A model generated the notes under the pieces. That model was given only the letters and a program-made list of their open reading frames with translations, was not told where the DNA came from and ran no database searches. 64,000 nucleotides of DNA from an uncultured virus (IMG/VR IMGVR_UViG_3300027686_000002) (Duplodnaviria > Heunggongvirae > Uroviricota > Caudoviricetes): IMG/VR virus record IMGVR_UViG_3300027686_000002; one strand, 5' to 3'. A program made the translations under genes and the position numbers. Of the stretch, positions 16,462 to 57,423 are shown one piece after another; position 1 is the first letter of the stretch, and each line of letters begins with the position of its first letter.

Positions 16462-16490
16462 TTGACAAGTAAGATATCTTACCGTATAAT
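16462..16490 (+). promoter_or_regulatory. Early sigma70 promoter with palindromic operator in spacer
   Basis: TTGACA-AGTAAGATATCTTACCG-TATAAT; perfect 14-bp palindrome GTAAGATATCTTAC. Confidence 0.9.
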
Positions 16491-16521
16491 GTATATATAA
16501 GTCAGAAACGGAGTATATGAT

Positions 16522-17229
16522 ATGAAAAAAGTTCCTTACCCTTCAGTTACAGTACATGATGTAATGTGTGTAGCTATCAAAGTACACGAAAAGCAAGGTT
16601 TTATCCGCAGTGGTCAAGGGTATATTGACACAACTACCGATTCTGAAACAGAAGTAAGAATTGAGGACAATAAGTCTGAAATTGGAAAAATTCTATCTTC
16701 AAAGGCAAGAACTACAGCAATTGTAAATGAGTACTCATCAAAGGGTACAGACTTAGTTGATCACATTAACGGCAAACTTATGATTAAGAAGATGACTAAT
16801 AATCTTAACAACTTTGAAGCTAATGTTGTTAAAGCATTGTCAGAAGCTGATGTAAGTAAGTTTTCTGTTAGTATTATTGCTAGCTTGCCACATAGTGTTA
16901 CAGTTGATAAAAAACGTGAAGTAGTAGCTGATAAAATGGTTTCTTTGAAGCACAGTAGCCAATACTTTGGTGAGAAGTCTAAACGTTACGATCTTGCTGT
17001 AGAAGTGCTAGATGTTAAATTTATACAATCTAGTAACATTTACATGATATCTGCATGTTACATGGGTAAAGACATTATTAAGTTTTGGTGGAGAGATCAA
17101 CCAGATATTAGCGACATTGTTGCTGATAGAGTTATTAAGATACGAGGCACAGTTAAGAACCATGAAGTGTCAAAGTACTCAGATTCTAAAGAAACTATGT
17201 TAAACCGGGTAAAAATCCTAGCATTATAG
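16522..17229 (+). CDS. Hypothetical early protein with probable C-terminal OB-fold
   Basis: YFGEKSKRYDLAVEV...KIRGTVKNH...ETMLNRVK beta pattern; GGAG RBS. Confidence 0.5.
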   Translation: MKKVPYPSVTVHDVMCVAIKVHEKQGFIRSGQGYIDTTTDSETEVRIEDNKSEIGKILSSKARTTAIVNEYSSKGTDLVDHINGKLMIKKMTNNLNNFEANVVKALSEADVSKFSVSIIASLPHSVTVDKKREVVADKMVSLKHSSQYFGEKSKRYDLAVEVLDVKFIQSSNIYMISACYMGKDIIKFWWRDQPDISDIVADRVIKIRGTVKNHEVSKYSDSKETMLNRVKILAL

Positions 17230-17243
17230 GGGTTTATTAAAGG

Positions 17244-17272
17244 TTGACATATTCCCCGATTAATAGTATTAT
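17244..17272 (+). promoter_or_regulatory. Sigma70 promoter without operator palindrome
   Basis: TTGACA-17 nt-TATTAT. Confidence 0.7.
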
Positions 17273-17325
17273 ATACTTAACTTAACAGACAAACAGTTTG
17301 TTACAAACTAAAAGGAAGTAATAAT

Positions 17326-17586
17326 ATGAAAAATAAAAAAGCAGTAGGAACTAAGTTCTTTAAAGAAGGAACACAAAACCAACAAATCCTAGCAAGATTC
17401 TGGGGTACTGGTAAAACGTTTACTATGGACAGTCTAAGAGATAAATTAGACATCGCATCTCCGGGTGCTAGACTATCTGAATTAAGAGACATGGGCTTTA
17501 ATGTTAGAGCTACAGCTATTTCAGAAGGTAACGTTGGCAGATCTGCTAACGAGTACACTATATCTAAAAAAAGAGTAGCAGTATAA
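17326..17586 (+). CDS. Small winged helix-turn-helix DNA-binding protein
   Basis: QQILARF..TFTMDSLRDKLDIASPGARLSELRDMGFNV..EYTI helix-helix-wing pattern; basic termini. Confidence 0.7.
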   Translation: MKNKKAVGTKFFKEGTQNQQILARFWGTGKTFTMDSLRDKLDIASPGARLSELRDMGFNVRATAISEGNVGRSANEYTISKKRVAV

Positions 17587-17676
17587 TACTTACAACAATT
17601 GGGCCGTCCTTTTGGACTGGCCCAATCGTATGAATAAACTAATCAAAAAAAGATTAAAATAATTGCAATATACCGG

Positions 17677-17705
17677 TTGACAAGTAAGACTTCTTACTGT
17701 ATACT
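17677..17705 (+). promoter_or_regulatory. Early sigma70 promoter with palindromic operator
   Basis: TTGACA-AGTAAGACTTCTTACTG-TATACT. Confidence 0.9.
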
Positions 17706-17757
17706 TAGTATATAAAGTTAGTTAATTGAAGTAAACAAAAGAACAGGAGTTCAAAAT

Positions 17758-18636
17758 ATGTCGAAAACAATGCAACTTAAGAAAGCTCGTAAAGATCGTA
17801 AAGGCGAGACAATTATTGAAGTACTTCCAAATAACGTTGTAGACAATCCCAAAGAAACAGACGCTCAGATTATTGAACGTATGCGTGAACGTTTCCAAAT
17901 ACTAGACGATATGACACAAGCATCAATTGATGGTGTTGTACGTGGTATGGTTGTAACGGGTCCTCCAGGAGTTGGTAAGTCATATGGTGTTGAACAAGTT
18001 CTAGAAAAGAATAGTTTGTTTGATGTCCTTGCTAACAATAAATTACGTTTTGAAGTTATTAAAGGTGCTAGTAGTGCAATTGGTTTGTACAAAGTACTTT
18101 ACAATAATGCAGACAAAAACAGTGTTCTTGTGTTAGATGATTGTGATACAGTATTGTATGATGAGACATCGCTTAACTTGCTAAAGGCAGCACTTGACTC
18201 ATGTAAGAAGCGTAAGCTATGCTGGAATACAGATAGTGCATTACTACGTAGGGAAGGTATTCCAGATACTTTTGAATTCCAAGGTAGTGTAATTTTTATT
18301 ACTAACCTTAAGTTTGATAATGTACGTGGTAAAATTAAAGATCACTTAGCGGCAATCATGTCACGTTGTCATTACTTAGATCTTACAATGGATACTACAC
18401 GTGAAAAAGTATTACGTTGTAAGCAGATTGTTGCAGATGGCATGCTTAATGAGTATGACTTTACAGCAGAAGAAGAAACAGACATAATGGACTTTATGAT
18501 TAGTAACAAAGAAAAGATGCGTGAAATATCATTGCGTATGGTTACTAAATTAGCAGACTTGAAAAAGAGCTTCGGTTCTGAGAAGTGGAAACGTACTGCA
18601 GAAGTTACATGTATGCGTAGGGTTGCTGTTGTATAG
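17758..18636 (+). CDS. AAA+ ATPase of unknown function
   Basis: GPPGVGKS Walker A, LVLDDCD Walker B, IFITN sensor-1, AIMSRC arginine finger. Confidence 0.85.
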   Translation: MSKTMQLKKARKDRKGETIIEVLPNNVVDNPKETDAQIIERMRERFQILDDMTQASIDGVVRGMVVTGPPGVGKSYGVEQVLEKNSLFDVLANNKLRFEVIKGASSAIGLYKVLYNNADKNSVLVLDDCDTVLYDETSLNLLKAALDSCKKRKLCWNTDSALLRREGIPDTFEFQGSVIFITNLKFDNVRGKIKDHLAAIMSRCHYLDLTMDTTREKVLRCKQIVADGMLNEYDFTAEEETDIMDFMISNKEKMREISLRMVTKLADLKKSFGSEKWKRTAEVTCMRRVAVV

Positions 18637-18648
18637 CTTCTAAATTAG

Positions 18649-18671
18649 AAAAGCCCTTCGGGGCTTTTTTT
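18649..18671 (+). terminator. Intrinsic terminator with UUCG tetraloop
   Basis: AAAAGCCC-TTCG-GGGCTTTTTTT. Confidence 0.9.
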
Positions 18672-18682
18672 GTGACTACCAC

Positions 18683-18711
18683 TTGACTTTCCTTAACAAT
18701 TAGTGTATTAT
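18683..18711 (+). promoter_or_regulatory. Sigma70 promoter, probable leaderless transcript of uvsW
   Basis: TTGACT-17 nt-TATTAT; ATG begins 7 nt after the last base of the -10. Confidence 0.7.
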
Positions 18712-18717
18712 AATAGT

Positions 18718-23046: not shown

Positions 23047-23109
23047 TACTTCTATTTATGCTTTCAAAATCCGAACAATTTTGATAAATACAATACAGGA
23101 GTCTAACAC

Positions 23110-26381: not shown

Positions 26382-26429
26382 ATAAATACTACAATAAAGT
26401 AAGAAGTAAATTATTACTGGAGAAGAAAC

Positions 26430-31290: not shown

Positions 31291-31333
31291 GCATAAATAC
31301 ATTATATAACAAAAACCTAGTGGGGTAAAAAAT

Positions 31334-35030: not shown

Positions 35031-35102
35031 TTATTAGATATAAACACAAGTTAAATACAATACTGTTTGATACAGAACAAAAACAACATATGGACGAGAT
35101 AA

Positions 35103-40824: not shown

Positions 40825-40853
40825 TTGACAAATGTAACTCTTACTAGTATAGT
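40825..40853 (+). promoter_or_regulatory. Sigma70 promoter with partial operator half-site
   Basis: TTGACA-AATGTAACTCTTACTAG-TATAGT; contains TCTTACT. Confidence 0.7.
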
Positions 40854-41371: not shown

Positions 41372-41447
41372 GCCGATGTAGCTCAGCTGGTAGAGCAATT
41401 GATTTGTAATCAATAGGTCCCGAGTTCGACTCTTGGTATCGGCACCA
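41372..41447 (+). tRNA. tRNA-Thr(UGU)
   Basis: Cloverleaf, ATTGA-TTTGTAA-TCAAT anticodon arm, TTCGA, encoded CCA. Confidence 0.95.
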
Positions 41448-41458
41448 TTACATACTAT

Positions 41459-41541
41459 GCCCCGATGGTGGAATTGGTAGACACGCTAGTCTTAGGAACT
41501 AGTGCGAAAGCGTGAGAGTTCGAGTCTCTCTTGGGGCACCA
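41459..41541 (+). tRNA. tRNA-Leu(UAG)
   Basis: CTAGT-CTTAGGA-ACTAG arm, long variable arm, TTCGA, CCA. Confidence 0.95.
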
Positions 41542-41645
41542 AAATACTAGAACTAATTAATAGGCTAATAGGAATGCCGGCTGAGAAAAGCAATAGACAA
41601 CGGACATAAATACACATAGTAATAAGTTAGGAAAGGATTACTGTA

Positions 41646-41843
41646 ATGGAAGATACAATAAAGCAAGCACTTGAACTTCATGCCAGAGGCCAAATTGCGA
41701 AACATAAAGCCAACGTACTAATTTACTTAAAGAATCCTGTAGGCATTGGAGAACATCCAGGTGTCATAGACGCAGTTGAAGAAGAGATTCAAGCAATTGC
41801 AAAATATCACGATCAACTTGAAGTACTAAGTACGTACTTCTAA
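41646..41843 (+). CDS. Small conserved phage protein
   Basis: KHKANVLIYLKNPVGIGEHP motif; late promoter and AAGGA RBS. Confidence 0.7.
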   Translation: MEDTIKQALELHARGQIAKHKANVLIYLKNPVGIGEHPGVIDAVEEEIQAIAKYHDQLEVLSTYF

Positions 41844-41849
41844 ATTATC

Positions 41850-41925
41850 GGGGCTGTAGCTCACCTGGGAGAGCGCCTGCTTTGCAAGCAGGAGGTAGTC
41901 GGTTCGAGTCCGTCCAGCTCCACCA
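41850..41925 (+). tRNA. tRNA-Ala(UGC)
   Basis: GGGGCTG acceptor with G3:U70, CCTGC-TTTGCAA-GCAGG arm, CCA. Confidence 0.95.
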
Positions 41926-41944
41926 ATTTTAATAGTGGAAATAA

Positions 41945-42850
41945 ATGAAAACTGTAATATATCAAAACAATCTAGGAAGTGCATCAGGAATTCACTGGTG
42001 GCTTGCTAATGAAACTAATGTAGGACCGCAGCTGTATTCATTTACTGATGCGTATTTGCGTCCGGCAGGAGATCACGTTGGTGGCATTGTAATTGAAGAT
42101 AGTAGTGCAGAATTACACAGTACACATAAAGAATCACTGTTAATATTAGATACAACTACTGCAACCGGCGAGTTAGATGTATTAGCTCCTTTTACAAACG
42201 TAGCTGATACTAACCACACTGAAAAACATGATATGTTTTTATGGAGTAACTTTGGTGGTAACTTACTTGATACAACACAGGTTATTAAAGCAGATAAAAC
42301 TATTTTAGTAGATAACACTCCTGAAGAACAACTATTCTTTTATATTAGTCAATACGCATTTTCGTGGATTGATTCAATAGAAGACTTAGATGAACAAACA
42401 ACAGAGTGGGTAAACGATCACCCAGAATCGTCAATTTTTAACGACATTTGGTTAAATAAGCATAAGGAAGTCTTCCATAAGGCATTTACTGATGGAACAC
42501 TCAAGTACATGTGGCAATTAAACTTTGCACATCATGACTTGGCAAACAATTTAAAGAGTGGCGGAACTGATACACAGATCCCTGATGCAGATGATCATGG
42601 AAGACTGTTTGAAGTTAAACGCAACGATATAGCAGAGCAGTCAATGACAGATACTTTATTTGAATATTCAAATAGAGAAATAGATCATATAGTAGTAGGT
42701 GATGATTGGTTTAAGGATAAAGGAGACAGTATTTTAAGTTACCTTGATATGTTAAACACATTTAGACTTAAGAAATTCTATTTAGATTATCACAAAATGT
42801 ACATGCGAAAAAAAGTATTGTACGAAGATAAATTTTCAAAACATTTATAG
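41945..42850 (+). CDS. Hypothetical protein (sulfotransferase-like family inferred), paralog of 44660..45571
   Basis: Shared IHWWLA, GPQ.Y, WSN, FYISQYAF, DG.L.YMWQLNFAH.DL, RLFE motifs. Confidence 0.6.
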   Translation: MKTVIYQNNLGSASGIHWWLANETNVGPQLYSFTDAYLRPAGDHVGGIVIEDSSAELHSTHKESLLILDTTTATGELDVLAPFTNVADTNHTEKHDMFLWSNFGGNLLDTTQVIKADKTILVDNTPEEQLFFYISQYAFSWIDSIEDLDEQTTEWVNDHPESSIFNDIWLNKHKEVFHKAFTDGTLKYMWQLNFAHHDLANNLKSGGTDTQIPDADDHGRLFEVKRNDIAEQSMTDTLFEYSNREIDHIVVGDDWFKDKGDSILSYLDMLNTFRLKKFYLDYHKMYMRKKVLYEDKFSKHL

Positions 42851-42861
42851 GAGTATAGGCT

Positions 42862-43275
42862 ATGGCTTATTCAGACAAGGTGATGGACCATTATGAGAAC
42901 CCACGAAACGTAGGTAAATTTAATGCTGAAGAAAGTAACATTGGTACAGGTATGGTAGGAGCTCCAGCGTGTGGAGACGTAATGCGTTTACAAATCAAAG
43001 TAGATGAAAATGGTATTATTGAAGATGCTAAATTCAAAACTTATGGTTGCGGTAGTGCTATTGCTAGTAGTAGTTTATTAACTACAATGGTAAAAGGTAT
43101 GACGTTAGATAAAGCAGGCTCAATAAAGAACATGGATATTGCACATGAACTTGCATTACCTCCAGTTAAGATACATTGCAGTGTACTAGCCGAAGATGCA
43201 ATTAAATCTGCTATTGCAGATTATCAAGGCAAAAACCCAGTACCTGAGGGTGCTAGCTACTACGAAATTAAGTAG
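42862..43275 (+). CDS. iscU: Fe-S cluster scaffold protein IscU
   Basis: YSDKVMDHYENPRNVG, GAPACGDVM, GCGSAIASSS, LPPVKIHC. Confidence 0.97.
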   Translation: MAYSDKVMDHYENPRNVGKFNAEESNIGTGMVGAPACGDVMRLQIKVDENGIIEDAKFKTYGCGSAIASSSLLTTMVKGMTLDKAGSIKNMDIAHELALPPVKIHCSVLAEDAIKSAIADYQGKNPVPEGASYYEIK

Positions 43276-43289
43276 ATAACTAATATAGT

Positions 43290-43377
43290 GGAGGGTTGGC
43301 AGAGTGGTCGATCGCGTTGGTCTTGAAAACCAATGAACTGCAAGGTTCCGAGAGTTCGAATCTCTCACCCTCCGCCA
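43290..43377 (+). tRNA. tRNA-Ser(UGA)
   Basis: TTGGT-CTTGAAA-ACCAA arm, long variable arm, TTCGAA, CCA. Confidence 0.95.
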
Positions 43378-43396
43378 GTAACATTAAGGAAGTTAA

Positions 43397-43438
43397 ATGA
43401 ATACAGTAGATAAAATAACAACAACTAGTTGGATATGA
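43397..43438 (+). pseudogene. Duplicated 5' remnant of grxD (13-codon mini-ORF MNTVDKITTTSWI)
   Basis: 43395-43418 matches 44335-44358 at 23/24 nt; AAGGAAG RBS; TGA overlaps the ATG of the next gene. Confidence 0.6.
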
Positions 43439-44310
43439 CCATAAAAAGAATTTTTACATACGGTTGTAGTTTTGGAAGATGGCGCTGGCCTTGTTGGCCT
43501 GATATGATTCAGAAAAACTTTGGTGACGAATACAAATATATAAAAAACTCTAATGCTGGCTTAGGCAATCAAGGTATATTCTGCATGATGCTTGAAGATG
43601 ATTTGCATTTTAAATTTACAGAAGACGATATTATATTAGTAGGTTGGTCTGCATGGGCAAGGGAAGATAGACTCCAAGAAAACGGTTTCTGGGAATGTTA
43701 TGGTAACCTACTAACTTCTCTTAATCCTTCTGATAAGTATGGTGAAGAATATATAAAAAAATACTGGTCAATGTCAAACGACATAATGAGAAACACTTCG
43801 GCAATTATAGCCGCAAGTAAGATGTTTAATATTACACATCAACATCATATTTTTGATTATGATAATTTAGAAGATAATAACGCACAGAGTAAAACATATA
43901 AACTTATGAACAAATTAAATTGGAAAACTGAACCTGCTTCCAGTAGATATAACTTTAACCAGCATTGGGCAAACTTACCTGAAAAAGAATTATTCAATGA
44001 CAATAAAGGATATGAGCATAATTCACGGTTTAGTGGTCGTGTAATAGATAATCATCCTGATATTATTGCACAACTTGAACACACAACCGCAGTACTTGAA
44101 AAAATAGGTCTAACAATGAAACAAGAGACCATAGATTTTTATACACAAGAATACCAACGAGTAATTGACTACATTGATAATAGTGACCCAATTAAAAGAG
44201 AATTATTACAAGACGGCAATTGGAATTGTTTTTCCGAAACATTTAAAATTGTGTTTCCAGAAATAGACGCACATTCGACTGGCCCATTTTCCCAGAAGAT
44301 TATAAGATAA
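43435..44310 (+). CDS. SGNH-like hydrolase family protein
   Basis: IFTYGCSFG, NAGLGNQ, VGWSAWARED, DNHPD. Confidence 0.6.
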   Translation: MTIKRIFTYGCSFGRWRWPCWPDMIQKNFGDEYKYIKNSNAGLGNQGIFCMMLEDDLHFKFTEDDIILVGWSAWAREDRLQENGFWECYGNLLTSLNPSDKYGEEYIKKYWSMSNDIMRNTSAIIAASKMFNITHQHHIFDYDNLEDNNAQSKTYKLMNKLNWKTEPASSRYNFNQHWANLPEKELFNDNKGYEHNSRFSGRVIDNHPDIIAQLEHTTAVLEKIGLTMKQETIDFYTQEYQRVIDYIDNSDPIKRELLQDGNWNCFSETFKIVFPEIDAHSTGPFSQKIIR

Positions 44311-44336
44311 ATAACTGCATAACGAGAGTAGAAAAA

Positions 44337-44657
44337 ATGAATATAGTAGATAAAATAAAAGAACAAATTAATGGCAATGCTATTGTACTTTACATGAAAG
44401 GCAATCCTACGTTTCCAGCTTGTGGATTTTCAGCAAAAACAGTACAAAACTTACAAAACTGTAATGAGGAGTTTGCATATGTTGATATATTACAAGATGC
44501 TGAAATAAGGCAAGGCATAAAAGACTTTAGTGATTGGCCTACAATACCTCAAGTATATGTAAACGGTGAATTTATAGGCGGCTGTGATATTGTAAATGAC
44601 ATGGCACAATCGGGCGAACTAGCCGAACTGATAAGTACTACTATAACTAGAAAGTAA
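44337..44657 (+). CDS. grxD: Monothiol CGFS glutaredoxin (Grx4)
   Basis: YMKG.P..PACGFS, WPTIPQVYVNGEFIGGCDI. Confidence 0.95.
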   Translation: MNIVDKIKEQINGNAIVLYMKGNPTFPACGFSAKTVQNLQNCNEEFAYVDILQDAEIRQGIKDFSDWPTIPQVYVNGEFIGGCDIVNDMAQSGELAELISTTITRK

Positions 44658-44659
44658 AT

Positions 44660-45571
44660 ATGATAGGAATATACCAACACGTTAATGCACACGCACCAGC
44701 AATTCACTGGTGGCTTGCTAGCGACCCACGCTTTGGACCCCAAATATACGAAGGCAGAAACCCAAATCCAGATAACTTAGCAATTGGTAATATAGTTTCA
44801 GAATTACGTGCCGATTCTGCTATTGATACACAACTATATAATTCCCATCAAGAATCACTTAGAATGATGGAAAACAAAAGAGAAAATAATGGTAGTGTAG
44901 ATTGTCTTACAGATTATTTTAAATTTAATAACAAATTTGAATACCCAGTATGGAGTAATTACTTTGGTTGTTGTGATAACCCACAATTTGCTCCACAATG
45001 CGAAAAACTTATTGTTGCAAAAGCTACAACAAAACAAAGTGCAATGTTTTACATAAGTCAATATGCATTTAATAGAATGCCTGCAGATAGAATCGATGTC
45101 CATACTAAGATTTGGTGGGAAGATCATATGCTAATGGCTGGAAAAGAAATTGGAAAATGGAAAGAAGTTTGGTATAGAGACTATCATCAGCAATGTATTC
45201 AAGATGCAACAGATGGTAAGCTACAGTACATGTGGCAATTAAATTTTGCTCATTGGGATTTATACCATGCACAACTTGACGGCAACAATAGTTTTAAATT
45301 AGACTATTCGTTTCATAGACTGTTTGAACGAAAGCATGAAACTACAGATGAAATAGCACAAGACTTATCATTGTCGTACATAAAGAATTATAATAGAGAT
45401 CATTTAGTAATTGATGTTGAATGGTTTAAGAAAACAGACAAAATACTTGATTATTTAGGCGTAAGCAATAGTCAAATATTAAAAGATACAGCAAAATTGT
45501 ATCACACTAGGTACTATGCAGTTAAGCATGCGTACAAAAAACTTTATAATAAATACTACAAAGGAGAATAA
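44660..45571 (+). CDS. Hypothetical protein, paralog of 41945..42850
   Basis: Same conserved blocks as 41945..42850. Confidence 0.6.
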   Translation: MIGIYQHVNAHAPAIHWWLASDPRFGPQIYEGRNPNPDNLAIGNIVSELRADSAIDTQLYNSHQESLRMMENKRENNGSVDCLTDYFKFNNKFEYPVWSNYFGCCDNPQFAPQCEKLIVAKATTKQSAMFYISQYAFNRMPADRIDVHTKIWWEDHMLMAGKEIGKWKEVWYRDYHQQCIQDATDGKLQYMWQLNFAHWDLYHAQLDGNNSFKLDYSFHRLFERKHETTDEIAQDLSLSYIKNYNRDHLVIDVEWFKKTDKILDYLGVSNSQILKDTAKLYHTRYYAVKHAYKKLYNKYYKGE

Positions 45572-45573
45572 TT

Positions 45574-46023
45574 ATGAAAAAGATATTAGTAACAATGTTT
45601 GCCGCACTCACACTTCTACTTACAGCAGGACAAGCTACTGCAAAAGAAGTGAACATGGTGATTTATGATTTTGAAGTTACACGAGTTATAGATGGAGACA
45701 CAGTAGCATTTAAAGCAGACTTTTTACCAGAGCCACTTAAACAAGAACTAAGTATTCGTGTTTACGGCGTAGATACTCCTGAGAAAAGTTGGAGAGCTGA
45801 ATGTACAGAAGAAGCTGGTTGGGGAGAGCTTGCAAGTAAATTTACTAAAAGCAAACTTAACGGTGCAACTAAAATACAAGTAGCAATCTATAAGTGGGAC
45901 AAATATGGCGGGCGTGTATTAGGTGATATTATTATTGATGGCAAAAGTTTACGACACATGCTAATTGATAATGGATTTGCCAGAGAATACTACGGCGACA
46001 AAAAAGAATCTTGGTGTAAGTAA
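45574..46023 (+). CDS. Thermonuclease (SNase-like) with signal peptide
   Basis: MKKILVTMFAALTLLLTAGQATA signal; RVIDGDT, IRVYGVDTPE, DKYGGRVLG. Confidence 0.85.
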   Translation: MKKILVTMFAALTLLLTAGQATAKEVNMVIYDFEVTRVIDGDTVAFKADFLPEPLKQELSIRVYGVDTPEKSWRAECTEEAGWGELASKFTKSKLNGATKIQVAIYKWDKYGGRVLGDIIIDGKSLRHMLIDNGFAREYYGDKKESWCK

Positions 46024-46028
46024 AACGG

Positions 46029-46057
46029 TTGACAAGTTAACCTACTTATACTAAAAT
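46029..46057 (+). promoter_or_regulatory. Sigma70 promoter for tRNA-Glu
   Basis: TTGACA-17 nt-TAAAAT, ending 9 nt before the tRNA 5' end. Confidence 0.75.
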
Positions 46058-46065
46058 AGCAACAT

Positions 46066-46140
46066 GCACCCTTCGTCTATCGGTTAGGACACACGGTTTT
46101 CATCCGTGCAAGAGGAGTTCGATTCTCCTAGGGTGTACCA
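46066..46140 (+). tRNA. tRNA-Glu(UUC)
   Basis: GCACCCT/AGGGTGT acceptor, CACGG-TTTTCAT-CCGTG arm, TTCGA, CCA. Confidence 0.93.
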
Positions 46141-50572: not shown

Positions 50573-51649
50573 ATGGATAAATTTAATAAAGATAATAAAA
50601 AAATAGCAGTAGGCTGGTTATTGGCAGATAATGTTAATACACTTGTTACTGGTTTTTCTCAGAATTTATTAGAATACTATTATGTAGTTGTAGACAAATA
50701 CAATGCACAACAGTACATACACAATGACATAGAAGTAATGGTAGAACAATCAAAGCTAGATGGCTTTGAACAAATACTCATTATAAAGCAAGGCATTGTG
50801 TTTACTAATATTGACGAGTACTTTAATTCTGTAAATTCAACTGCACCTATGATTATAGCAGGTGGTGATACTATATTAGATTTTAATAAAGCAACACCAG
50901 ATATGTTCTCACACCTAATATTAAGAATTCTTAATACACAAGTTACATTCGTAGCAAACACAGACAACCCAAATATTGCAGAACACTACATGCCAGATTT
51001 AGGCGATATACAATTCACTAAATTAGTAACAAGTGCAGGTGGATTAAATCCCATACTGTATCCTTGGTCATTGGGCATGGAAGCAAGTTGTACAGTAGAA
51101 GTTAGAGATGTAAGCAATATTGCTTTAATAAATGCTAAACGTTGGGTAACTGAATGGGATGGAATAGACTCTAAAACCTTCTCATTAATGCTGAAGAATG
51201 CTTCAACTATTGATGGTGATACTATCCAAACACGTGGATATAAAATGGCTGATCAAATGCAAGCACAAGTGGATAATCAACTAGGTTTTAAGGATTGGCA
51301 TGCAGATGCATTTAAGCATATTGGGTATTCATATCATATACATGATTTCTTTAATCCTACTGACAATGCAAGGCTGTTAGACTCCATACAAAGCAACGTA
51401 GGCAACGTTTACGTTCATTTAAGCAACATTTATCACTATCAAGCTACTGCATTCTACTTTGGGCTAAACGCCCGTGTAAGCATGCGTAATGAGCTTCTAA
51501 ACAGCATAAAAAGCCGGAACCTTGGTAGCAAAGTAATGATAACTTTAATGGATCCACAGATGAATCAACCACCAAAAGCTATGTGGGTAGATGACATTGA
51601 AATACAAGAAGTACTACCTAAATTTAAAGTGTTTCCTTGGCAGTTATAG
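50573..51649 (+). CDS. Methyltransferase-like protein, shortened paralog of 671..2101
   Basis: AVGWL, KQG, FVANT, FTKLVTSAGGLNP, DVS..AL, TEWDG, YVHLSNIYHY shared. Confidence 0.55.
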   Translation: MDKFNKDNKKIAVGWLLADNVNTLVTGFSQNLLEYYYVVVDKYNAQQYIHNDIEVMVEQSKLDGFEQILIIKQGIVFTNIDEYFNSVNSTAPMIIAGGDTILDFNKATPDMFSHLILRILNTQVTFVANTDNPNIAEHYMPDLGDIQFTKLVTSAGGLNPILYPWSLGMEASCTVEVRDVSNIALINAKRWVTEWDGIDSKTFSLMLKNASTIDGDTIQTRGYKMADQMQAQVDNQLGFKDWHADAFKHIGYSYHIHDFFNPTDNARLLDSIQSNVGNVYVHLSNIYHYQATAFYFGLNARVSMRNELLNSIKSRNLGSKVMITLMDPQMNQPPKAMWVDDIEIQEVLPKFKVFPWQL

Positions 51650-52645
51650 CATAGTAGACATATAAGCGTAGCACATACGACTTTCGTTATGTAGCTTATG
51701 TTGGTAGAAATGATTGAATGGTTTTGTCTTATGAAAACGCTTTGAATCCCAGGATATAAGTTTTCCAGGTTCCCCAAAATACAGTATCTTTTCTAATGAT
51801 GTTCCATATCCTTCTTCTTGATTGAATACACGTGTGTGGTCTTCTACATGTTCCATAATACGTGCATAATCTTCATCACTCATTGGAGCATCTGTAAAGT
51901 TACGTATATGCTCGCCAAATCTTGTTGGCTCGTCACCTTTACCAAAACAAATTATTCTCTTTTTAGGCGCAGGCCCTACACTCCATGTACCTTCAATTTC
52001 AGCACCATAATTTAAGTATACGCTATATGGATACCATTGATTAAAAGTAACTGTACCAGCAGTTGGTCCAGCATCAATGTTAATCAATCCTTGGTGACCA
52101 GCACATGGAGTTGCTTTATTTGGTTTATATTGTTTAGGATTTAAGTCTTCCCATTTCTCAGGTCTATTTTGACTTTTTAAAGGAGTATCCACTCCGTCAG
52201 TATGAATTTCAAAAGGCTTGTTAAAATTAAATATTGATGTTGTCCAAATCCAACCTGGATCTCTTCCTAACTTAGTTAAGTTAGTGTGTACAGCATCACG
52301 CATTTCTTTTATTATGTTAAAGTCATTTTGATACTTCTTTTTAAACTGTCTGTATACTTCGTTGTCTGCAGATCTAAACAATCCACTTTTGGCACGGTTT
52401 ACTGCATTAAGATAATCAAAGCAAATAAAACTTGCAGTCTCTTCTCCAGCTACATCAAAACTTGCCCAAATATCATTAATTTTTAAACGAGCAGGATCCA
52501 TGTGTGCAATCTCTTCAGCAAACTTTGGTGTTATATAATTGTAAAAATCCTTAAGACCTGTTATTAGTGCAGGATCTACAAAATTATCATGTTCTACTGA
52601 TTCGTATAATTCATCTTTGTAAAAATAATCACTCATTCCACCCAT
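51644..52645 (-). CDS. 2OG-Fe(II) oxygenase-like protein
   Basis: PFEIHTD (HxD), GLINID, PGKLISWDSKRFHKT, distal R. Confidence 0.65.
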   Translation of the reverse strand: MGGMSDYFYKDELYESVEHDNFVDPALITGLKDFYNYITPKFAEEIAHMDPARLKINDIWASFDVAGEETASFICFDYLNAVNRAKSGLFRSADNEVYRQFKKKYQNDFNIIKEMRDAVHTNLTKLGRDPGWIWTTSIFNFNKPFEIHTDGVDTPLKSQNRPEKWEDLNPKQYKPNKATPCAGHQGLINIDAGPTAGTVTFNQWYPYSVYLNYGAEIEGTWSVGPAPKKRIICFGKGDEPTRFGEHIRNFTDAPMSDEDYARIMEHVEDHTRVFNQEEGYGTSLEKILYFGEPGKLISWDSKRFHKTKPFNHFYQHKLHNESRMCYAYMSTML

Positions 52646-52944
52646 CCATCAGCAGTAATGCTAGCATCATCAATTCCTGACTCTCCTAACCTAATTCCTT
52701 TTTCCCATGTTCTGTTTTCAGACACATGATTTGCAAATGCTCTTTTTTGTTCTTCATCTTCAAATCCCATCATACAAATAACTTGTTCGCCAACAATTTG
52801 ATATTGTACTGTTGGTGTATTTGTCCAATTTGTATTGTCAAATGATGCTTGTTTGCTTGATATTCTTTGTCCTTCTGAACCAGCTTTAAATCCAGCTAAA
52901 TCAGCAAAAGGTCCTATAAAAACCTTAGTATGATATATATTCAT
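52633..52944 (-). CDS. Hypothetical 103-aa protein, paralog of 5530..5838
   Basis: Minus-strand TAAATA at 52971-52976 and AAGGAG RBS. Confidence 0.7.
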   Translation of the reverse strand: MNIYHTKVFIGPFADLAGFKAGSEGQRISSKQASFDNTNWTNTPTVQYQIVGEQVICMMGFEDEEQKRAFANHVSENRTWEKGIRLGESGIDDASITADGWVE

Positions 52945-52999
52945 ATGATTAATCTCCTTACGATTAGTAATATTTATCTAAGAAAAATTAAATTAATTT

Positions 53000-53028
53000 A
53001 AAAACCCTTGTTTTATATGGGTTTTTTT
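53000..53028 (+). terminator. Terminator of repeated terminator-promoter cassette
   Basis: AAAAACCC-loop-GGGTTTTTTT; near copy at 56534. Confidence 0.75.
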
Positions 53029-53041
53029 AGCTAACTAAAGG

Positions 53042-53070
53042 TTGACAAGTAAGACATCTTGCCGTATAAT
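53042..53070 (+). promoter_or_regulatory. Early sigma70 promoter with operator
   Basis: TTGACA-AGTAAGACATCTTGCCG-TATAAT. Confidence 0.92.
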
Positions 53071-53107
53071 TAGTATATAAGTTAAACAAACAACGGAGTT
53101 GAATTAC

Positions 53108-53515
53108 ATGGCATATATTACATCAGAAGACGTAAAAGCAGTAAGAAACGCATTAAAAGCTGAATTTGGTAACAAGTTCAAATTTGGTGTTACTAAGCAA
53201 CATCATTCAAGCGTAAACATTGTTGTTAAAGCAGGCCCTGCACCACTTGATACTTATGAGATGAAGAATCAAAGAGGCGATATGATGGCTAGCAATGGTA
53301 ACTTTCAAGTAAATCATTATCATACACATATGTATGGTGAATTCCAAGGTTTCTTTGATAGGCTTTCAGAAATTGCACATACTGCACCAGGTTTAGCAGG
53401 TGGCAGAAAATGGTATGATGATAGTGATGCAATGACAGATTATTTCAGTACTGCATACTACGTTAATATTGAAGTTGGAAAATACGACAAGCCTTACATT
53501 AACACAAGTAAATAA
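53108..53515 (+). CDS. Early hypothetical protein (LPD-type phage domain inferred)
   Basis: VRNALKAEFG.KFKFGV....SSVNI, DSDAMTDYF..AYY; GGAG RBS. Confidence 0.55.
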   Translation: MAYITSEDVKAVRNALKAEFGNKFKFGVTKQHHSSVNIVVKAGPAPLDTYEMKNQRGDMMASNGNFQVNHYHTHMYGEFQGFFDRLSEIAHTAPGLAGGRKWYDDSDAMTDYFSTAYYVNIEVGKYDKPYINTSK

Positions 53516-53526
53516 AGGAGATAAAA

Positions 53527-53742
53527 ATGGGAATGAGTAATTATATTTTAGATAACGAAGACAAATTTTGGAACCTAGCAGACGAAACTATTATCGACTG
53601 TGAAGTGTTTGAACAATTTGTTAGTGCAATGAAGCCACAGCAAGATTTACTTCAAGGTTCACCTAGTATGCCAGAAAATGAAGTAGACTTTGAAAACATG
53701 CTAAGTGAAGCATGGTCACAAAAGCAACGTAAATTCGCCTAA
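53527..53742 (+). CDS. Early hypothetical protein
   Basis: AAGGAG RBS. Confidence 0.7.
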   Translation: MGMSNYILDNEDKFWNLADETIIDCEVFEQFVSAMKPQQDLLQGSPSMPENEVDFENMLSEAWSQKQRKFA

Positions 53743-53743
53743 T

Positions 53744-54103
53744 ATGATAGAACATAAAAAAGACAACCCACACAAGGAAATAGGTAAACAAAAGTTTAGA
53801 GTTAAAACCTATTACACTGCATGGGTTGAATATGACGTAATTGCTGATAACAAAGACGAAGCTATGGATAAAGTAATAGAGCATGGTGGAATTGAAAAAA
53901 TTAATTGGCAAGACGGTTGTTTGGGAGATGCAGAAGTTTATGCATGTGATCACAATTTTGTAGAACATGATGATACTGTTAAAGTAGCAGAATGTGTTCC
54001 ATACGAAGATAGCGATATTGATACAGGCGAAGATGTGCTAGACTATGATGATCCAGACTGGACTACTGATGAATTTAGATGGAAAATAGAGGTTGACAAG
54101 TAA
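53744..54103 (+). CDS. Early acidic hypothetical protein
   Basis: ATG 53744; last codons and stop lie inside the next promoter repeat. Confidence 0.65.
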   Translation: MIEHKKDNPHKEIGKQKFRVKTYYTAWVEYDVIADNKDEAMDKVIEHGGIEKINWQDGCLGDAEVYACDHNFVEHDDTVKVAECVPYEDSDIDTGEDVLDYDDPDWTTDEFRWKIEVDK

Positions 54104-54121
54104 GACGTCTTACTGTATACT
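54093..54121 (+). promoter_or_regulatory. Early sigma70 promoter with perfect 16-bp palindromic operator
   Basis: TTGACA-AGTAAGACGTCTTACTG-TATACT. Confidence 0.92.
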
Positions 54122-54146
54122 GTAAGTATATTAATTAAAAAGGAAT

Positions 54147-54731
54147 ATGAATATGTTTAAATTTTTATGGAAATTAATTAAATGGTCATTTGTTATAATT
54201 GTAGTTTTAATTGTTATTGCTTTTTTAATTCCAACTGATCCCGAAGCTGAAGCAAAACGTACACAAGCCCGTATTGAAAATTGCCAGACATTGATTTGGG
54301 GCGTTGGTAGTTGTGACGAAGATGGATATGAAACACAAGAATCTAAGGATCAGACAGCACTTATTGAGAGTGAGAAAAAAGCAAAAGCAGATGCAATAGC
54401 GACAAAAGCAAAAGCAAAAGCAGATGCTATAATAGCGGCACAAAAAGCAGAATCATCTCGTATAGACAACAAATTAACAGATGGTAGACTTATGTGTAAA
54501 AATTCCGTAAGAAAACTAGCCAAGTACCCAACTAAAGTAGACTACGATGGCTGGACATCAGGAGACATGGTTGAAAACTTTAATAAAGGTAGCCAGTATC
54601 CAGACCGTTTTTGGATTAACTTTGAAGGTGAATGGATGAATGGCTTTGGAAATATGGTACCGTTTACTGCTCATTGCAAACTTGATATGAATTCAACTGC
54701 TGGTAAAATAGTTGATATGTGGATTAAATAA
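54147..54731 (+). CDS. Early membrane-anchored protein
   Basis: N-terminal TM (FVIIVVLIVIAFLI), Ala/Lys helix, C-terminal globular domain with Cys pair. Confidence 0.7.
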   Translation: MNMFKFLWKLIKWSFVIIVVLIVIAFLIPTDPEAEAKRTQARIENCQTLIWGVGSCDEDGYETQESKDQTALIESEKKAKADAIATKAKAKADAIIAAQKAESSRIDNKLTDGRLMCKNSVRKLAKYPTKVDYDGWTSGDMVENFNKGSQYPDRFWINFEGEWMNGFGNMVPFTAHCKLDMNSTAGKIVDMWIK

Positions 54732-54734
54732 AGG

Positions 54735-54763
54735 TTGACAAGCAAGACATCTTGCTGTATAAT
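54735..54763 (+). promoter_or_regulatory. Early sigma70 promoter with operator (compensatory variant)
   Basis: TTGACA-AGCAAGACATCTTGCTG-TATAAT. Confidence 0.92.
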
Positions 54764-54808
54764 ACATAGTATAAGTTAATTAAATAACAACAACAAGGAG
54801 AAACATAT

Positions 54809-55147
54809 ATGTACGAAGTAGCAGAAATTAAGGCAATTGTGGAAAAAGCAAAAGCGGCAGCTCACACTGCATCACTAAAATACTTAAATGAAAACCTAAA
54901 GGGTGAAGATACTTATCCTTGTGGATTTGCTTGGGTTACTATTAACGGTATTAAAGGTAATACTAAGTTTGGAATGAACATGAAAAAAGCCGGTCTTGAG
55001 CAAGATTATACTAAGGCTTGGAAAATTTGGAACCCTGGTACAGTTAACGTGCAAAACGTTGATGTTAAAGAAGCTGGTGCAGACGCGGCAGCTAAGGTGT
55101 TTGAATCATTTGGATTTAAAGCATACTCAAACAGTAGGTTAGATTAA
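54809..55147 (+). CDS. Early conserved phage hypothetical protein
   Basis: YPCGFAWV..QNVDVKEAGA..SRLD; AAGGAG RBS. Confidence 0.7.
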   Translation: MYEVAEIKAIVEKAKAAAHTASLKYLNENLKGEDTYPCGFAWVTINGIKGNTKFGMNMKKAGLEQDYTKAWKIWNPGTVNVQNVDVKEAGADAAAKVFESFGFKAYSNSRLD

Positions 55148-55148
55148 T

Positions 55149-55295
55149 ATGGATGATGCAACAATCGCATTGTACGAACGCAGAATAGATAGTTGCGTTC
55201 GTGCTTCAAAGGCCGCAGAAAAGGGAACGTGGGCACACACCTTTTGGATGCAAACTGCTTCAGCTATTTTGAGAAAACTTCGTAGAAACTCTTAA
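55149..55295 (+). CDS. Small early protein, 48 aa (not in ORF track)
   Basis: MDDATIALYERRIDSCVRASKAAEKGTWAHTFWMQTASAILRKLRRNS fills the gap to the next promoter. Confidence 0.55.
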   Translation: MDDATIALYERRIDSCVRASKAAEKGTWAHTFWMQTASAILRKLRRNS

Positions 55296-55303
55296 AATAA
55301 AGG

Positions 55304-55332
55304 TTGACAAGCAAGACATCTTGCCGTATAAT
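55304..55332 (+). promoter_or_regulatory. Early sigma70 promoter with operator
   Basis: TTGACA-AGCAAGACATCTTGCCG-TATAAT. Confidence 0.92.
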
Positions 55333-55378
55333 AATAGTATAAAGTAAGAATTTAATAACAAAGCCTGGAGGCATATAT

Positions 55379-56509
55379 ATGTTAGAAAATATTGTAAAAC
55401 TTGATACTCTGTTTAAAAGAGATACAAAAAGTAAAGTTCGCATGTGGGAAGTTGAATATGGACAAGGTCCTAGGCTACTTGCAGGAACACGTACTATCAG
55501 TGGTTTAGTTGATGGTGCCAAAGTTACAAGCGAATGGAATATGAGTGCTCCCAAGAACGTTGGTAGAGCAAACGAAACAACCGCATTAAGCCAAGCACAA
55601 GCCGAAGCCCAATCTTTATGGGATAAACGTATTGAGAAAGAGTACTTTACAAATGTTGACAGCATTGACTCTTATGAACAATTTAAGCCAATGCTTGCAC
55701 ATGATTATACAAAGCGTCCACAAGACAAAGGTTGGAGTCAGCCTAAGTTAGATGGTATTCGTTGTGTAGTTAATAGTAACGGAATGTGGACACGTAGTGG
55801 TAAAGCTATTACAAGTTGCCCACACATTTGGGAATCTTTAAAAGGTTACATGGCAGAGCATCCAGGTCATATATTAGATGGTGAACTTTATAACCATGAA
55901 CTTAAAGCAGATTTTAATAAAATTATCTCACTTGTTCGTAAAACAAAAAGCACAGAAAAAGATATGGCTGAAGCTGAAACACTAGTGCAGTATCATGTTT
56001 ATGATATGTTTAATACAACAGCACCAGATATGAATTTTGTTAATCGTGTTAAGCAAGCATATTGGGCTAAAAACGATTATGTTCATATTGTAAAAACTGA
56101 CTTTGCAAACAGCCAAGAAGAGCTTGATATATTGTACAGTGAATACACAGAGCAAGGTTACGAAGGCCAAATGGTACGTAACGACACAGCATATGAAAGC
56201 AAACGTAGTAAGAACTTACTGAAACGTAAAGAGTTCATTACTGAAGAATTCAAAGTTCTACAAGTACTTGAAGGCCAAGGAAATTGGAGCGGATATGCTA
56301 AACGTTTTATACTTGAACTAGCAGACGGTAGACAGTTTGGTAGTGGAGTACGTGGACAGCAAGCACAGTTGGCAGAACTGTGGGCGGCTGGCAAAACAGC
56401 TAAAGGCATGCCCAATTGGGCCACTTGTAGATACTTTGAACTAACACCAGATGGAGTTCCACGTTTTCCAGTTATTGTGGACTACGGATACGGTGTACGT
56501 ACTGATTAA
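55379..56509 (+). CDS. ATP-dependent DNA ligase
   Basis: KPMLAH, QPKLDGIRC, LDGELY, YHVYD, YEGQMVR, KRS..LLKRK, PRFP. Confidence 0.92.
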   Translation: MLENIVKLDTLFKRDTKSKVRMWEVEYGQGPRLLAGTRTISGLVDGAKVTSEWNMSAPKNVGRANETTALSQAQAEAQSLWDKRIEKEYFTNVDSIDSYEQFKPMLAHDYTKRPQDKGWSQPKLDGIRCVVNSNGMWTRSGKAITSCPHIWESLKGYMAEHPGHILDGELYNHELKADFNKIISLVRKTKSTEKDMAEAETLVQYHVYDMFNTTAPDMNFVNRVKQAYWAKNDYVHIVKTDFANSQEELDILYSEYTEQGYEGQMVRNDTAYESKRSKNLLKRKEFITEEFKVLQVLEGQGNWSGYAKRFILELADGRQFGSGVRGQQAQLAELWAAGKTAKGMPNWATCRYFELTPDGVPRFPVIVDYGYGVRTD

Positions 56510-56533
56510 CTATAAATTAATTTAAATTAAATT

Positions 56534-56561
56534 AAAAACCCTTGTATTTTAAGGGTTTTTT
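56534..56561 (+). terminator. Terminator of repeated terminator-promoter cassette
   Basis: AAAAACCCTTG-TATTT-TAAGGGTTTTTT. Confidence 0.8.
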
Positions 56562-56575
56562 CTTTACGATTCCGG

Positions 56576-56604
56576 TTGACAAGTAAGACGTCTTGCCGTA
56601 TAAT
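56576..56604 (+). promoter_or_regulatory. Early sigma70 promoter with operator
   Basis: TTGACA-AGTAAGACGTCTTGCCG-TATAAT. Confidence 0.92.
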
Positions 56605-56639
56605 TAGTATATAAGTTAAACAAAACAAAGGATATAAAA

Positions 56640-56972
56640 ATGCAAAATGAAATAAACACATTGTTAGCAAGTATCAAGCAAGATTATATTAGATGGACTA
56701 CCCAAGATGGTAAGAAAGAGCTTACAGGCTATAACAAAGACCAAGTAGACAATTGGGATTCGTTGATGGAAGTTAAAGAAGGTAAAAAGTATATTAAGAT
56801 TATCAGAGACAGGGGTGTTTGGGGTTTTGTTGTTAAGGAAGACGGTCCTAAATTTAAAAAAGGTGATATACTAAAAGCCGCAGGTTATAATGCACCAGCT
56901 ACTAACGCCGCAAGGGGTAACATTTTTGAAGAATTTAGTGTTGCTTGGACCGGTCCACATTACTTAAAATAA
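56640..56972 (+). CDS. Early conserved phage hypothetical protein
   Basis: GKKYIKI..VWGFV..GDILKAAG.NAPA.N.ARGNI motif. Confidence 0.7.
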   Translation: MQNEINTLLASIKQDYIRWTTQDGKKELTGYNKDQVDNWDSLMEVKEGKKYIKIIRDRGVWGFVVKEDGPKFKKGDILKAAGYNAPATNAARGNIFEEFSVAWTGPHYLK

Positions 56973-56983
56973 GGGAATATAAA

Positions 56984-57388
56984 TTGACACCAGTACTTTA
57001 CATACTAATGAGAAATGACCTTGCTTCGCTTAATGCGGGCAAGGCGATGGCACAGGCTAGCCATGCTAGTAATGCATTTCTCTTCAACTTAGTAAATGAT
57101 CCATCAAAAGCTGACTATAAGGATTTAGTTGAAGAATGGATATCCACTACAACACAAGGCTTTGGCACTGTTTTTGTTCTAGCAGTTAATGAAGAACAAT
57201 TAAATAAGGCTATTGATCTTGCAGATGCAGATGGATTTGCAACTAACATAATTACTGATCCAACTTACCCAATCAAAGACGGTGACGTTACGCACCATTT
57301 ACCACTAGACACTTGTGGATATATATTTGGTGATCATGAAGATCCAATGTTGAGATTGATAACACAGGATTTAGAATTATATCCATAA
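56984..57388 (+). CDS. Peptidyl-tRNA hydrolase 2 (PTH2)-like protein
   Basis: YILMRNDL...AGKAMAQASHA, W......TVFVLAV, I.D; TTG start after AAGGGA. Confidence 0.75.
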   Translation: MTPVLYILMRNDLASLNAGKAMAQASHASNAFLFNLVNDPSKADYKDLVEEWISTTTQGFGTVFVLAVNEEQLNKAIDLADADGFATNIITDPTYPIKDGDVTHHLPLDTCGYIFGDHEDPMLRLITQDLELYP

Positions 57389-57394
57389 TAGGAC

Positions 57395-57423
57395 TTGACA
57401 ACCAAAGCGTCTTACCCTATACT
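57395..57423 (+). promoter_or_regulatory. Early sigma70 promoter with right operator half-site only
   Basis: TTGACA-ACCAAAGCGTCTTACCC-TATACT. Confidence 0.8.

Follow-up and report, generated by a model that had tools for sequence, protein, structure and literature searches.

A 64,000-nucleotide stretch of DNA from an uncultured virus of the Caudoviricetes (IMG/VR record IMGVR_UViG_3300027686_000002; the whole stretch is hereafter the window) contains seven strong sigma70 promoters with the same short inverted repeat, or dyad, between the -35 and -10 elements. Comparison with related contigs points to this dyad as the operator of a dimeric, sequence-specific protein that would act at a subset of promoters. 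We consider this explanation, the best supported of those weighed below, moderately probable, and the protein is most probably phage-encoded. Binding itself, repression as its outcome, the assignment of the promoters to an early class, and the identity of the binder are points that we infer.

Seven promoters share a short dyad

The promoter-operator pattern TTGACAAGYAAGANNTCTTRCYGTATAMT has exactly seven matches in the window, all on the + strand (16462, 17677, 53042, 54093, 54735, 55304, and 56576), while none of 100 dinucleotide shuffles contains any match (expected number, 0). All seven sites read TTGACA-N17-TATAAT or TTGACA-N17-TATACT. An earlier note on this DNA had reported these seven promoters, and the scan confirms the observation. 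The copy at 54093, AGTAAGACGTCTTACT, is identical on both strands and is thus the perfect 16-bp palindrome that the note had described. The central dinucleotides of the seven copies are, in order, TA, CT, CA, CG, CA, CA, and CG, and the copies at 54735 and 55304 carry the arms GCAAGA..TCTTGC.

Alignment of the flanks shows that the surroundings of the seven copies are unrelated. The conserved block also takes in a GG ahead of the -35 element and a GTATA/GTTAA leader after the -10 element. The functional unit is a 12-bp dyad, YAAGA-NN-TCTTR, extendable to 16 bp (usually AGYAAGA-NN-TCTTRCY); the constrained dyad is therefore shorter than the entire 17-bp spacer, which had been proposed as the operator. 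The 12-bp core YAAGANNTCTTR occurs eight times in the window, compared with 0.29 expected. Seven copies are those of the promoters; the eighth (50922) lies within an open reading frame (ORF) and is probably a chance or unrelated occurrence.

A scan of all sigma70-like sites bears out that the promoters at 17244, 18683, 23918, 33847, and 46029 have unrelated spacers and lack the palindrome. Three half-sites had been proposed in addition. The promoter at 57395 does retain the right arm, and its variant arm recurs at more distant orthologous promoters; the promoter at 40825 has the right arm one base off register; the sequence at 13357 (TAAGATATTATA) is weak and may be chance.

The dyad marks a subset of promoters in one clade

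Because a search based on TTGACAAGYAAGANNTCTTRCYGTATAMT imposes the dyad, related contigs were scanned for TTGACA-N17-TATAMT alone and for the core anywhere. The dyad-positive set comprises nine sequences, namely the window, its near-duplicate G001, G002-G006, G017, and G018. With promoters defined by a 17-bp spacer and at most one hexamer mismatch, the core is present in 53 of the 237 near-consensus sigma70 promoters of this set. These promoters account for 53 of 79 cores, and several of the others lie in promoters with two mismatches. The earlier note had proposed a genome-wide motif scan as a check on its claim, and the outcome is that the dyad marks a promoter subset.

The core occupies four registers in the 53 promoters. 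Specifically, it begins at offset 2 (spacer position 3) in 39, at offset 4 in six, at offset 7 in seven, and at offset -2, where it overlaps the -35 element, in one. At offset 7, the last TA of the core doubles as the first TA of the -10 element. The lineage of G017 and G018 uses offset 7 almost exclusively, and the dyad of the orthologous AAA ATPase promoter differs in register between lineages, with offset 2 in one and offset 7 in another.

The inverted arrangement with a two-base centre is enriched, with observed and expected counts of 8 and 0.6 in the window, 15 and 1.8 in G002, 9 and 1.5 in G003, and 12 and 1.5 in G017. Centres of one, three, or four bases and the everted order are found at shuffle level, and single half-sites are slightly depleted.

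The dyad is confined to one clade. In five more distant relatives (G013-G016 and G021; 307 kb), the core is present in 0 of 37 such promoters, and none of 185,579 prokaryote species (one genome each) contains the exact promoter-operator unit. Preceded by GG, the exact pattern matches at least 145 stretches of IMG/VR contigs; the matches listed comprise 150 sites, of which 95 are distinct if their flanks are taken into account.

Four relatives (G001 at 89194, G006 at 64011, G017 at 51894, and G018 at 105649) each have one copy of the core outside promoters, in a conserved setting some 30-40 nt upstream of a AAAAACCGCGG(TTTT) hairpin and apparently at the same orthologous place. These copies are unexplained by the promoter model.

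The arms are conserved at orthologous promoters

A dyad-blind sample was obtained by retrieving 80 IMG/VR loci through the AAA ATPase protein (73-100% amino-acid identity). From 79 of these loci, 38 distinct promoters upstream of the AAA gene were collected. The core is intact in 25 (22 at offset 2 and three at offset 7); in the remaining 13, whose orthologues are 73-87% identical, the dyad is decayed or absent.

In the uvsY-orf235-wHTH-AAA region (wHTH, winged helix-turn-helix), 39 loci have three consecutive promoters, those of orf235, the winged-helix gene, and the AAA gene, and represent 23 distinct haplotypes. All 23 haplotypes have the core at the AAA promoter (offset 2 in 19, offset 7 in four) and 19 have it at the orf235 promoter, compared with 0 of 23 at the winged-helix promoter, which has the same GG-TTGACA..-10 frame as its dyad-bearing neighbours. 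Pairwise diversity is 0.0 in the AAGA/TCTT arms, 0.43-0.61 at the central NN, and 0.37-0.57 in the 10 nt directly upstream of the GG before the -35 element. In the same haplotypes, per-site diversity across the 17 spacer bases of the winged-helix promoter is 0.47.

Judged from these diversities, the arms are held by purifying selection, not by recent copying of the promoter. Copying would have homogenised the centre too, and the central dinucleotide differs among the paralogues of the window and among orthologues alike. With four registers, invariant arms, and a neutral control in the same haplotypes, the results fit a dimeric-protein site, the earlier preference, better than simple duplication.

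Base combinations within the dyad

From the pattern-ascertained loci L001-L145, the window, and G001-G006, we compiled 129 distinct core-bearing promoter sites, of which 76 remained after de-replication by orthologous group and core sequence. The outer Y..R positions are T..A in 32, T..G in 16, C..A in 17, and C..G in 11 of these 76 sites. The outer Y and R are independent (Fisher p = 0.63), i.e. they do not covary. The symmetric double change at 54735 and 55304 had been taken as a sign of a dimeric site; the changes are present, but the argument does not hold in the wider set. The same set disposes of a wobble-paired RNA hairpin, an idea suggested by the window, which has T..A, C..G, and T..G and no C..A.

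Variation had also been said to concentrate in the two central bases. It does, but the centre is not free, being a pyrimidine-purine (YpR) step in 61 of the 76 sites. Such a bias would be expected if a bound protein bends an uncontacted centre.

The phage and its relatives

Scans with PHROG and Pfam indicate a large myovirus with a tail sheath, tail tube, and terminase, T4-type SSB, UvsX, and UvsY, a helicase, a primase, NrdAB, and many accessory genes. The best match of the large terminase (57% identity) is that of the Pseudomonas jumbo phage PA5oct. Thus, the phage, previously labelled T4-like, has recombination and replication genes of T4 type but is no close relative of T4. Cultured phages share no DNA with a 6 kb query and do not match the 48-nt cassette at E up to 1, a search in which the low-complexity filter may hide short matches.

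The nearest record, G001 (90 kb; rated completeness, 25%), has 84% of sampled words in common with the window; for a 205-kb relative, the rating is 56%. The genome of this jumbo myovirus should therefore be about 360 kb. The DNA runs that contain the region are marine metagenomes. Neither a resolvase (PF00239) nor a tyrosine recombinase/integrase (PF00589) is found in five relatives (774 kb), while the controls are positive in 12 and 14 of 14 genomes, consistent with the apparently lytic lifestyle proposed earlier.

Promoter cassettes and promoter classes

Cassette statistics were calculated for 48 dyad sites from the window and six relatives. GG precedes the -35 element in 46 of the 48 (other promoters, 43 of 173), GTATA lies within 14 nt after the -10 element in 34 (others, 21 of 173), and a terminator tail of GGG plus a T-run lies within 50 nt upstream in 19 (others, 3 of 136). 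The upstream stem-loop, present at two of the seven window sites (53042 and 56576), is thus enriched in the class and not universal. An ORF starts 16-52 nt after the -10 element at all 48 sites (median, 33). The dyad class also has the best hexamers.

The -10 element is directly followed by TAAGTA in 15 of the 48 dyad promoters and in two of 173 others. In the TATACT subclass, the -10 element is followed by GTAAGTATAG (54122-54135 in the window and the same place in relatives), and the right arm, the -10 element, and GTAAGTATAG together form a second near-palindrome (halves CTTACTGTA and TACTGTAAG). One possibility for the word after the TATACT -10 element is a third half-site; another is a conserved start region.

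The earlier note had assigned host-takeover genes to these promoters, which the downstream genes do not support. They are mainly small ORFans, most without a Pfam family. Genes for a DNA ligase, an AAA ATPase, and a PTH2-like protein are also among them in the window, as are UvdE, a cell-wall hydrolase, ribosomal protein S21, and a subtilase among those of relatives. Replication genes (SSB, helicase, primase, exonuclease, and NrdA) have dyad-free sigma70 promoters, and structural genes are preceded by a ATAAATAC-type word. With the dyad class, there are therefore at least three promoter classes.

The word (G/A)ATAAATAC lies 20-60 nt upstream of the starts of structural and some other genes, namely the sheath, tube, 12051, 23110, 26430, 31334, nrdA, and 60373 genes (2900-2930, 5450-5470, 5905-5925, 12025-12040, 23075-23095, 26382-26392, 31291-31305, 35050-35065, and 60320-60335). 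It looks like a T4-late-type promoter class that differs from the two sigma70 classes. Of the canonical late promoter word of T4, TATAAATA, the window has a single copy (29289).

Relatives differ in cassette content and order exactly at the dyad promoters. Among the 80 loci, the slot between orf235 and the AAA gene is either empty or occupied by the wHTH gene, a 116-aa ORF, or a radical-SAM-like gene. The window, G002, G003, G017, and G018 differ by rearrangements of the ligase region; in the relatives, the ligase gene lacks a promoter of its own and lies within other cassettes.

Four RNA-library runs from three studies contain parts of 52900-58000, as contigs only and with DNA carry-over possible. 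The contigs end at the repeated cassettes, as assembly breaks would, and start, strand, and timing cannot be read from them.

A possible switch and its candidate binder

We propose that, at a defined subset of very strong sigma70 promoters, a dimeric protein on the dyad would block host RNA polymerase. The unit under control would be a cassette of about 60 bp that comprises, in order, an optional terminator hairpin, GG, TTGACA, the 17-bp dyad-bearing spacer, TATAAT/TATACT, the GTATA/GTTAA leader, a Shine-Dalgarno sequence, and a small gene. Because the cassettes are insulated by terminators and their promoters are activator-free, a protein bound to the dyad would turn off, or jointly gate, all members of the class. 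A dyad that overlaps the region from -35 to -10 is in the classical position of a repressor site. Here, all registers overlap the -35 element, spacer, or -10 element, the spacers are 17 bp, and the hexamers match the consensus; no activator should be needed, and the arrangement fits repression. The operator interpretation of the earlier note is upheld in part: selection on the dyad, its restriction to a promoter subset, and its fit to a protein site stand, and the takeover genes, the double-change argument, and the T4-like label do not.

Candidate binders were sought by Pfam scans of the ORFs of the window, 192 small ORFs of G002, and 99 small ORFs specific to G003. The only sequence-specific DNA-binding domain is in an 86-aa winged-helix protein of the HTH_39 family (17326-17586); the scans also gave a cold-shock protein and an Hc1-like protein. 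The winged-helix gene is flanked by two dyad promoters and has a dyad-free promoter of its own in all 23 haplotypes. All five large dyad-positive contigs that span the slot carry the gene there and none of the five dyad-negative contigs spanning it does; the gene also occurs in G005, G019, and G020. It was not found in five small palindrome-bearing contigs, which are 4-19% complete.

The predicted structure of the protein is a winged helix (mean pLDDT, 74). A fold search gave weak matches only (best E, 0.049), of which the top ones are all winged-helix proteins, mostly transcription regulators or general transcription factors; many of these neighbours we take to be dimeric repressors of the ArsR/MarR/PadR kind. 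A search of the sequences of solved structures with the winged-helix alignment returned nothing meaningful (best E, 0.56). A homodimer prediction gave a score of 0.00 and no verdict, and was used neither way.

On this sequence evidence, the HTH_39 protein is a tentative candidate for the operator binder, as its co-occurrence with the palindrome is imperfect and 144 other protein families have the same profile of presence in positives and absence in negatives. A wider scenario is more speculative. In it, a clade of virulent marine jumbo myoviruses that has replication genes of T4 type and gave no match to AsiA or MotCF might run its early programme by a DNA-bound repressor and not by polymerase modification: the HTH_39 protein, made from its dyad-free promoter, would accumulate and shut off all dyad-marked, immediate-early cassettes simultaneously, and the cassettes would be gene-swap joints at which newcomers are automatically enrolled in the regulon.

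The leader of the winged-helix gene contains overlapping inverted repeats, ACAAAC-A-GTTTGT-TA-CAAAC (17285-17310), just before the Shine-Dalgarno sequence. Orthologous leaders have a different sequence and again an inverted repeat (e.g. AATAAC..GTTATT), which suggests a covarying RNA hairpin or an autoregulatory site.

Several points weigh against the operator reading or against its proposed binder. Pfam detects no other classical repressor among the 192 and 99 small ORFs of the two relatives. G012 has six cores and covers the slot, and the winged-helix gene is absent from this 98 kb fragment. Similarly, loci L236, L241, L250, and L265-L271, which are also fragments, have palindromic promoters, no winged-helix gene, and a different 116-aa gene in the slot. 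The haplotypes are related and their counts are not independent events, hence the importance of the neighbouring winged-helix promoter as a control. Conservation extends over the whole cassette, beyond the dyad, and could in part stem from recombination between copies. Finally, the centre-to-centre distance of a 5-2-5 core is short for a helix-turn-helix dimer; contact with the outer bases of the 16-bp form would remove this difficulty.

Alternative explanations

The binder could instead be a co-opted host transcription factor, for example a metabolic or stress regulator, by which the cassettes would be gated by the physiology of the cell. That the Pfam scans gave no convincing phage-encoded binder speaks for a host factor, and a change of host could explain why some relatives have lost the dyad. 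We nevertheless think it unlikely. The promoter-operator unit is in none of the prokaryote genomes searched, one for each of 185,579 species, a result that lends a host regulator no support. One specific host protein was considered. The centre of many sites is AGACGTCT, which we take to be the E. coli MetJ met-box consensus. The MetJ family needs at least two tandem 8-bp AGACGTCT boxes; the sites have a single central box, their flanking octamers do not match, and the centre is CG in just 19 of the 76 sites. On these family features, we reject host MetJ.

A second alternative, which we regard as quite unlikely, is that the dyad serves recombination, either as a crossover or recognition site or as a homology patch for the exchange of cassettes, and is found in promoters merely because promoters are the cassette joints. 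The differences in cassette content and order at the dyad promoters, with the variable slot and the rearranged ligase region, speak for such a role, and a two-base variable centre between inverted arms resembles the crossover sites of serine recombinases. Homologous exchange, however, needs no dyad and would not fix the arms yet free the centre, nor would it explain why the dyad shifts register yet stays within the region from -35 to -10. The wHTH cassette is swapped in the same slot without a dyad, and the five relatives lack a match to the resolvase or integrase families (above). On the other side, the cassettes of this phage resemble the promoter-early stem-loop (PeSL) cassettes of T4-type phages, which are documented recombination joints (PMC2839356; PMC4122927).

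Least probable, and in our view very unlikely, is an intrinsic DNA or RNA feature without a dedicated binder (a strength-tuning spacer, a cruciform, or a read-through hairpin): the activity of sigma70 promoters can depend on the spacer, hexamers are best in the palindromic class, and small hairpins can be drawn, but four registers are hard to reconcile with a fixed RNA polymerase contact, the non-pairing C..A combination is common and covariation is lacking, predicted stabilities are low (RNA, -3.4 to -7.1 kcal/mol; DNA, -0.7 to -4.5 kcal/mol) with loops of just 2-4 nt, the dyad is upstream of its own transcription start, and Rfam reports only five tRNAs in the window.

Relation to known systems

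PeSL cassettes were described in T4-type phages (Arbiol et al. 2010, PMC2839356; Comeau et al. 2014, PMC4122927). As in the relevant passages of these papers, the cassettes here have a near-consensus sigma70 promoter, a Shine-Dalgarno sequence, and a start codon before mostly small ORFans, part of them behind a terminator stem-loop, and are clustered in plastic regions at joints of cassette gain, loss, or replacement between relatives. A further trait of PeSLs is recombination between copies (mini-circles). The words 'spacer' and 'palindrom' have no occurrence in the main text of PMC2839356, and PMC4122927, in its account of the cassettes, describes an upstream stem-loop only and no spacer dyad. 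In full-text searches, a conserved spacer dyad in early promoters of PeSL type or of jumbo phages is undescribed, the supplementary promoter alignment of PA5oct being outside their scope. Unlike PeSLs, the promoters here have a 12-16 bp dyad inside the core promoter, which is under selection of its own and present in part of the promoters only; the upstream hairpin is found at only 19 of 48 sites; and the phage is outside the Tevenvirinae, as judged from its large terminase.

Operators that overlap core promoters and control several of them are classical: those of lambda and P22, the 12-bp KorA palindromes of IncP-1 plasmids, and the dispersed C1 operators of phage P1. Similarly, the dyad is short, lies over the -35 element, spacer, or -10 element of strong promoters, is present many times per replicon, and has conserved arms and a tolerant centre. 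The classical cases, however, are temperate phages or plasmids with known repressors, whereas here an apparently lytic jumbo phage has insulated single-gene cassettes and a putative binder.

The early-to-middle switch of T4, through AsiA/MotA and ADP-ribosylation by Alt/Mod, acts on the polymerase, and at T4 middle promoters a MotA box near -30 replaces the -35 element. The task would be the same, namely to alter how host sigma70 polymerase is used once the first minutes of infection have passed. In contrast to MotA promoters, all seven sites here have a perfect TTGACA as the -35 element, with an extra dyad on the DNA. AsiA (PF09010) and MotCF (PF09158) have no match in the five relatives, but the control genomes are equally silent, so that absence is not established. 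MerR-type spacer operators have an over-long spacer of 19-20 bp and act by activator-induced distortion, which differs from the optimal 17-bp spacers and consensus hexamers of all sites here.

The combination is therefore known in its parts, a PeSL-type cassette and a regulon of promoter-overlapping operators, here in an uncultured clade of lytic marine jumbo phages. Little is known of how large lytic phages other than the T-even group time their early genes, and infection experiments are not yet possible with the uncultured jumbo phages of marine samples. The dyad offers a sequence-defined, evolutionarily validated control element that could be used as bait for its regulator, and the perfect sigma70 consensus of the promoters makes a heterologous host usable. 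It also suggests a coupling of cassette exchange and regulation, in which an entering gene inherits promoter, operator, and terminator as one piece. As strong, insulated, and possibly repressible units, the promoters are of practical interest as genetic parts.

Other features of the window and its relatives

The coordinates of the promoters and associated features are listed in Table 1.

Table 1. Promoters, hairpins, and related features of the window. A dot marks a strand that is not assigned.
Feature	Position	Strand	Remarks
sigma70 consensus promoter, dyad AGTAAGA-TA-TCTTACC	16462..16490	+	Drives ORF 16522-17229 (235 aa, no assigned function); core kept in 19/23 haplotypes
Palindrome-free promoter GG-TTGACA-N17-TATTAT of the winged-helix gene	17244..17272	+	Internal neutral control; core in 0/23 haplotypes
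86-aa winged-helix protein (Pfam HTH_39), weak candidate binder	17326..17586	+
Promoter, -10 TATACT, dyad AGTAAGA-CT-TCTTACT	17677..17705	+	Drives AAA ATPase gene 17758-18636; core kept in 23/23 haplotypes
sigma70-like promoter, right arm only (TCTTACT), one base off usual register	40825..40853	+
Extra 12-bp core, within ATTAAGAATTCTTAAT, non-promoter	50922..50933	.	Inside ORF 50573-51649
PeSL-like, terminator-like hairpin, ACCCTTG..ATGGGT + T-run	53001..53028	+	Just upstream of promoter 53042
Consensus promoter, dyad AGTAAGA-CA-TCTTGCC	53042..53070	+	Drives LPD29-like ORF of 135-138 aa, 53099/53108-53515
Promoter, -10 TATACT, perfect 16-bp palindrome AGTAAGACGTCTTACT	54093..54121	+	Drives ORF 54147-54731 (194 aa), which has a homologue in none of 13 relatives compared
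Consensus promoter, dyad AGCAAGA-CA-TCTTGCT	54735..54763	+	Drives ORF 54809-55147 (112 aa)
Consensus promoter, dyad AGCAAGA-CA-TCTTGCC	55304..55332	+	Drives ATP-dependent DNA ligase gene 55379-56509
PeSL-like terminator hairpin AAAAACCCTTGTATTTTAAGGGTTTTT	56534..56560	.	Upstream of promoter 56576
Consensus promoter, dyad AGTAAGA-CG-TCTTGCC	56576..56604	+	Drives ORF 56640-56972 (DUF7717-like) and PTH2-like ORF 56945-57388
Promoter, decayed dyad ACCAAAG-CG-TCTTACC	57395..57423	+	Right arm intact, left damaged; drives HD phosphohydrolase gene 57456-57965

ORF 50573-51649 and its paralogues form a multi-copy family of proteins of about 360-470 aa, with two to six copies per contig. All dyad-positive relatives have the family and five dyad-negative ones are without it; Pfam and PHROG match none of its members.

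Five tRNA genes are scattered among small ORFs at 41372-46140 (Thr-TGT, Leu-TAG, Ala-TGC, Ser-TGA, and Glu-TTC). In relatives, some of the tRNAs are directly driven by sigma70 promoters with a decayed dyad (G002 near 128945 and G003 near 180695).

Loci L153-L156, L147-L151 (G002), and L162-L170 (G003) have an unusual load of host-like genes. These include genes for ClpP, ClpS, a ClpX-like protein, DnaJ, Hsp20, ribosomal protein S21, translation factor IF3, and a cold-shock protein; NifU/IscU, IscA-like, and FeS_assembly_P proteins of Fe-S cluster assembly and an Hc1 histone-like protein; and radical SAM/SPASM enzymes and queuosine-type GTP cyclohydrolase I/PTPS.

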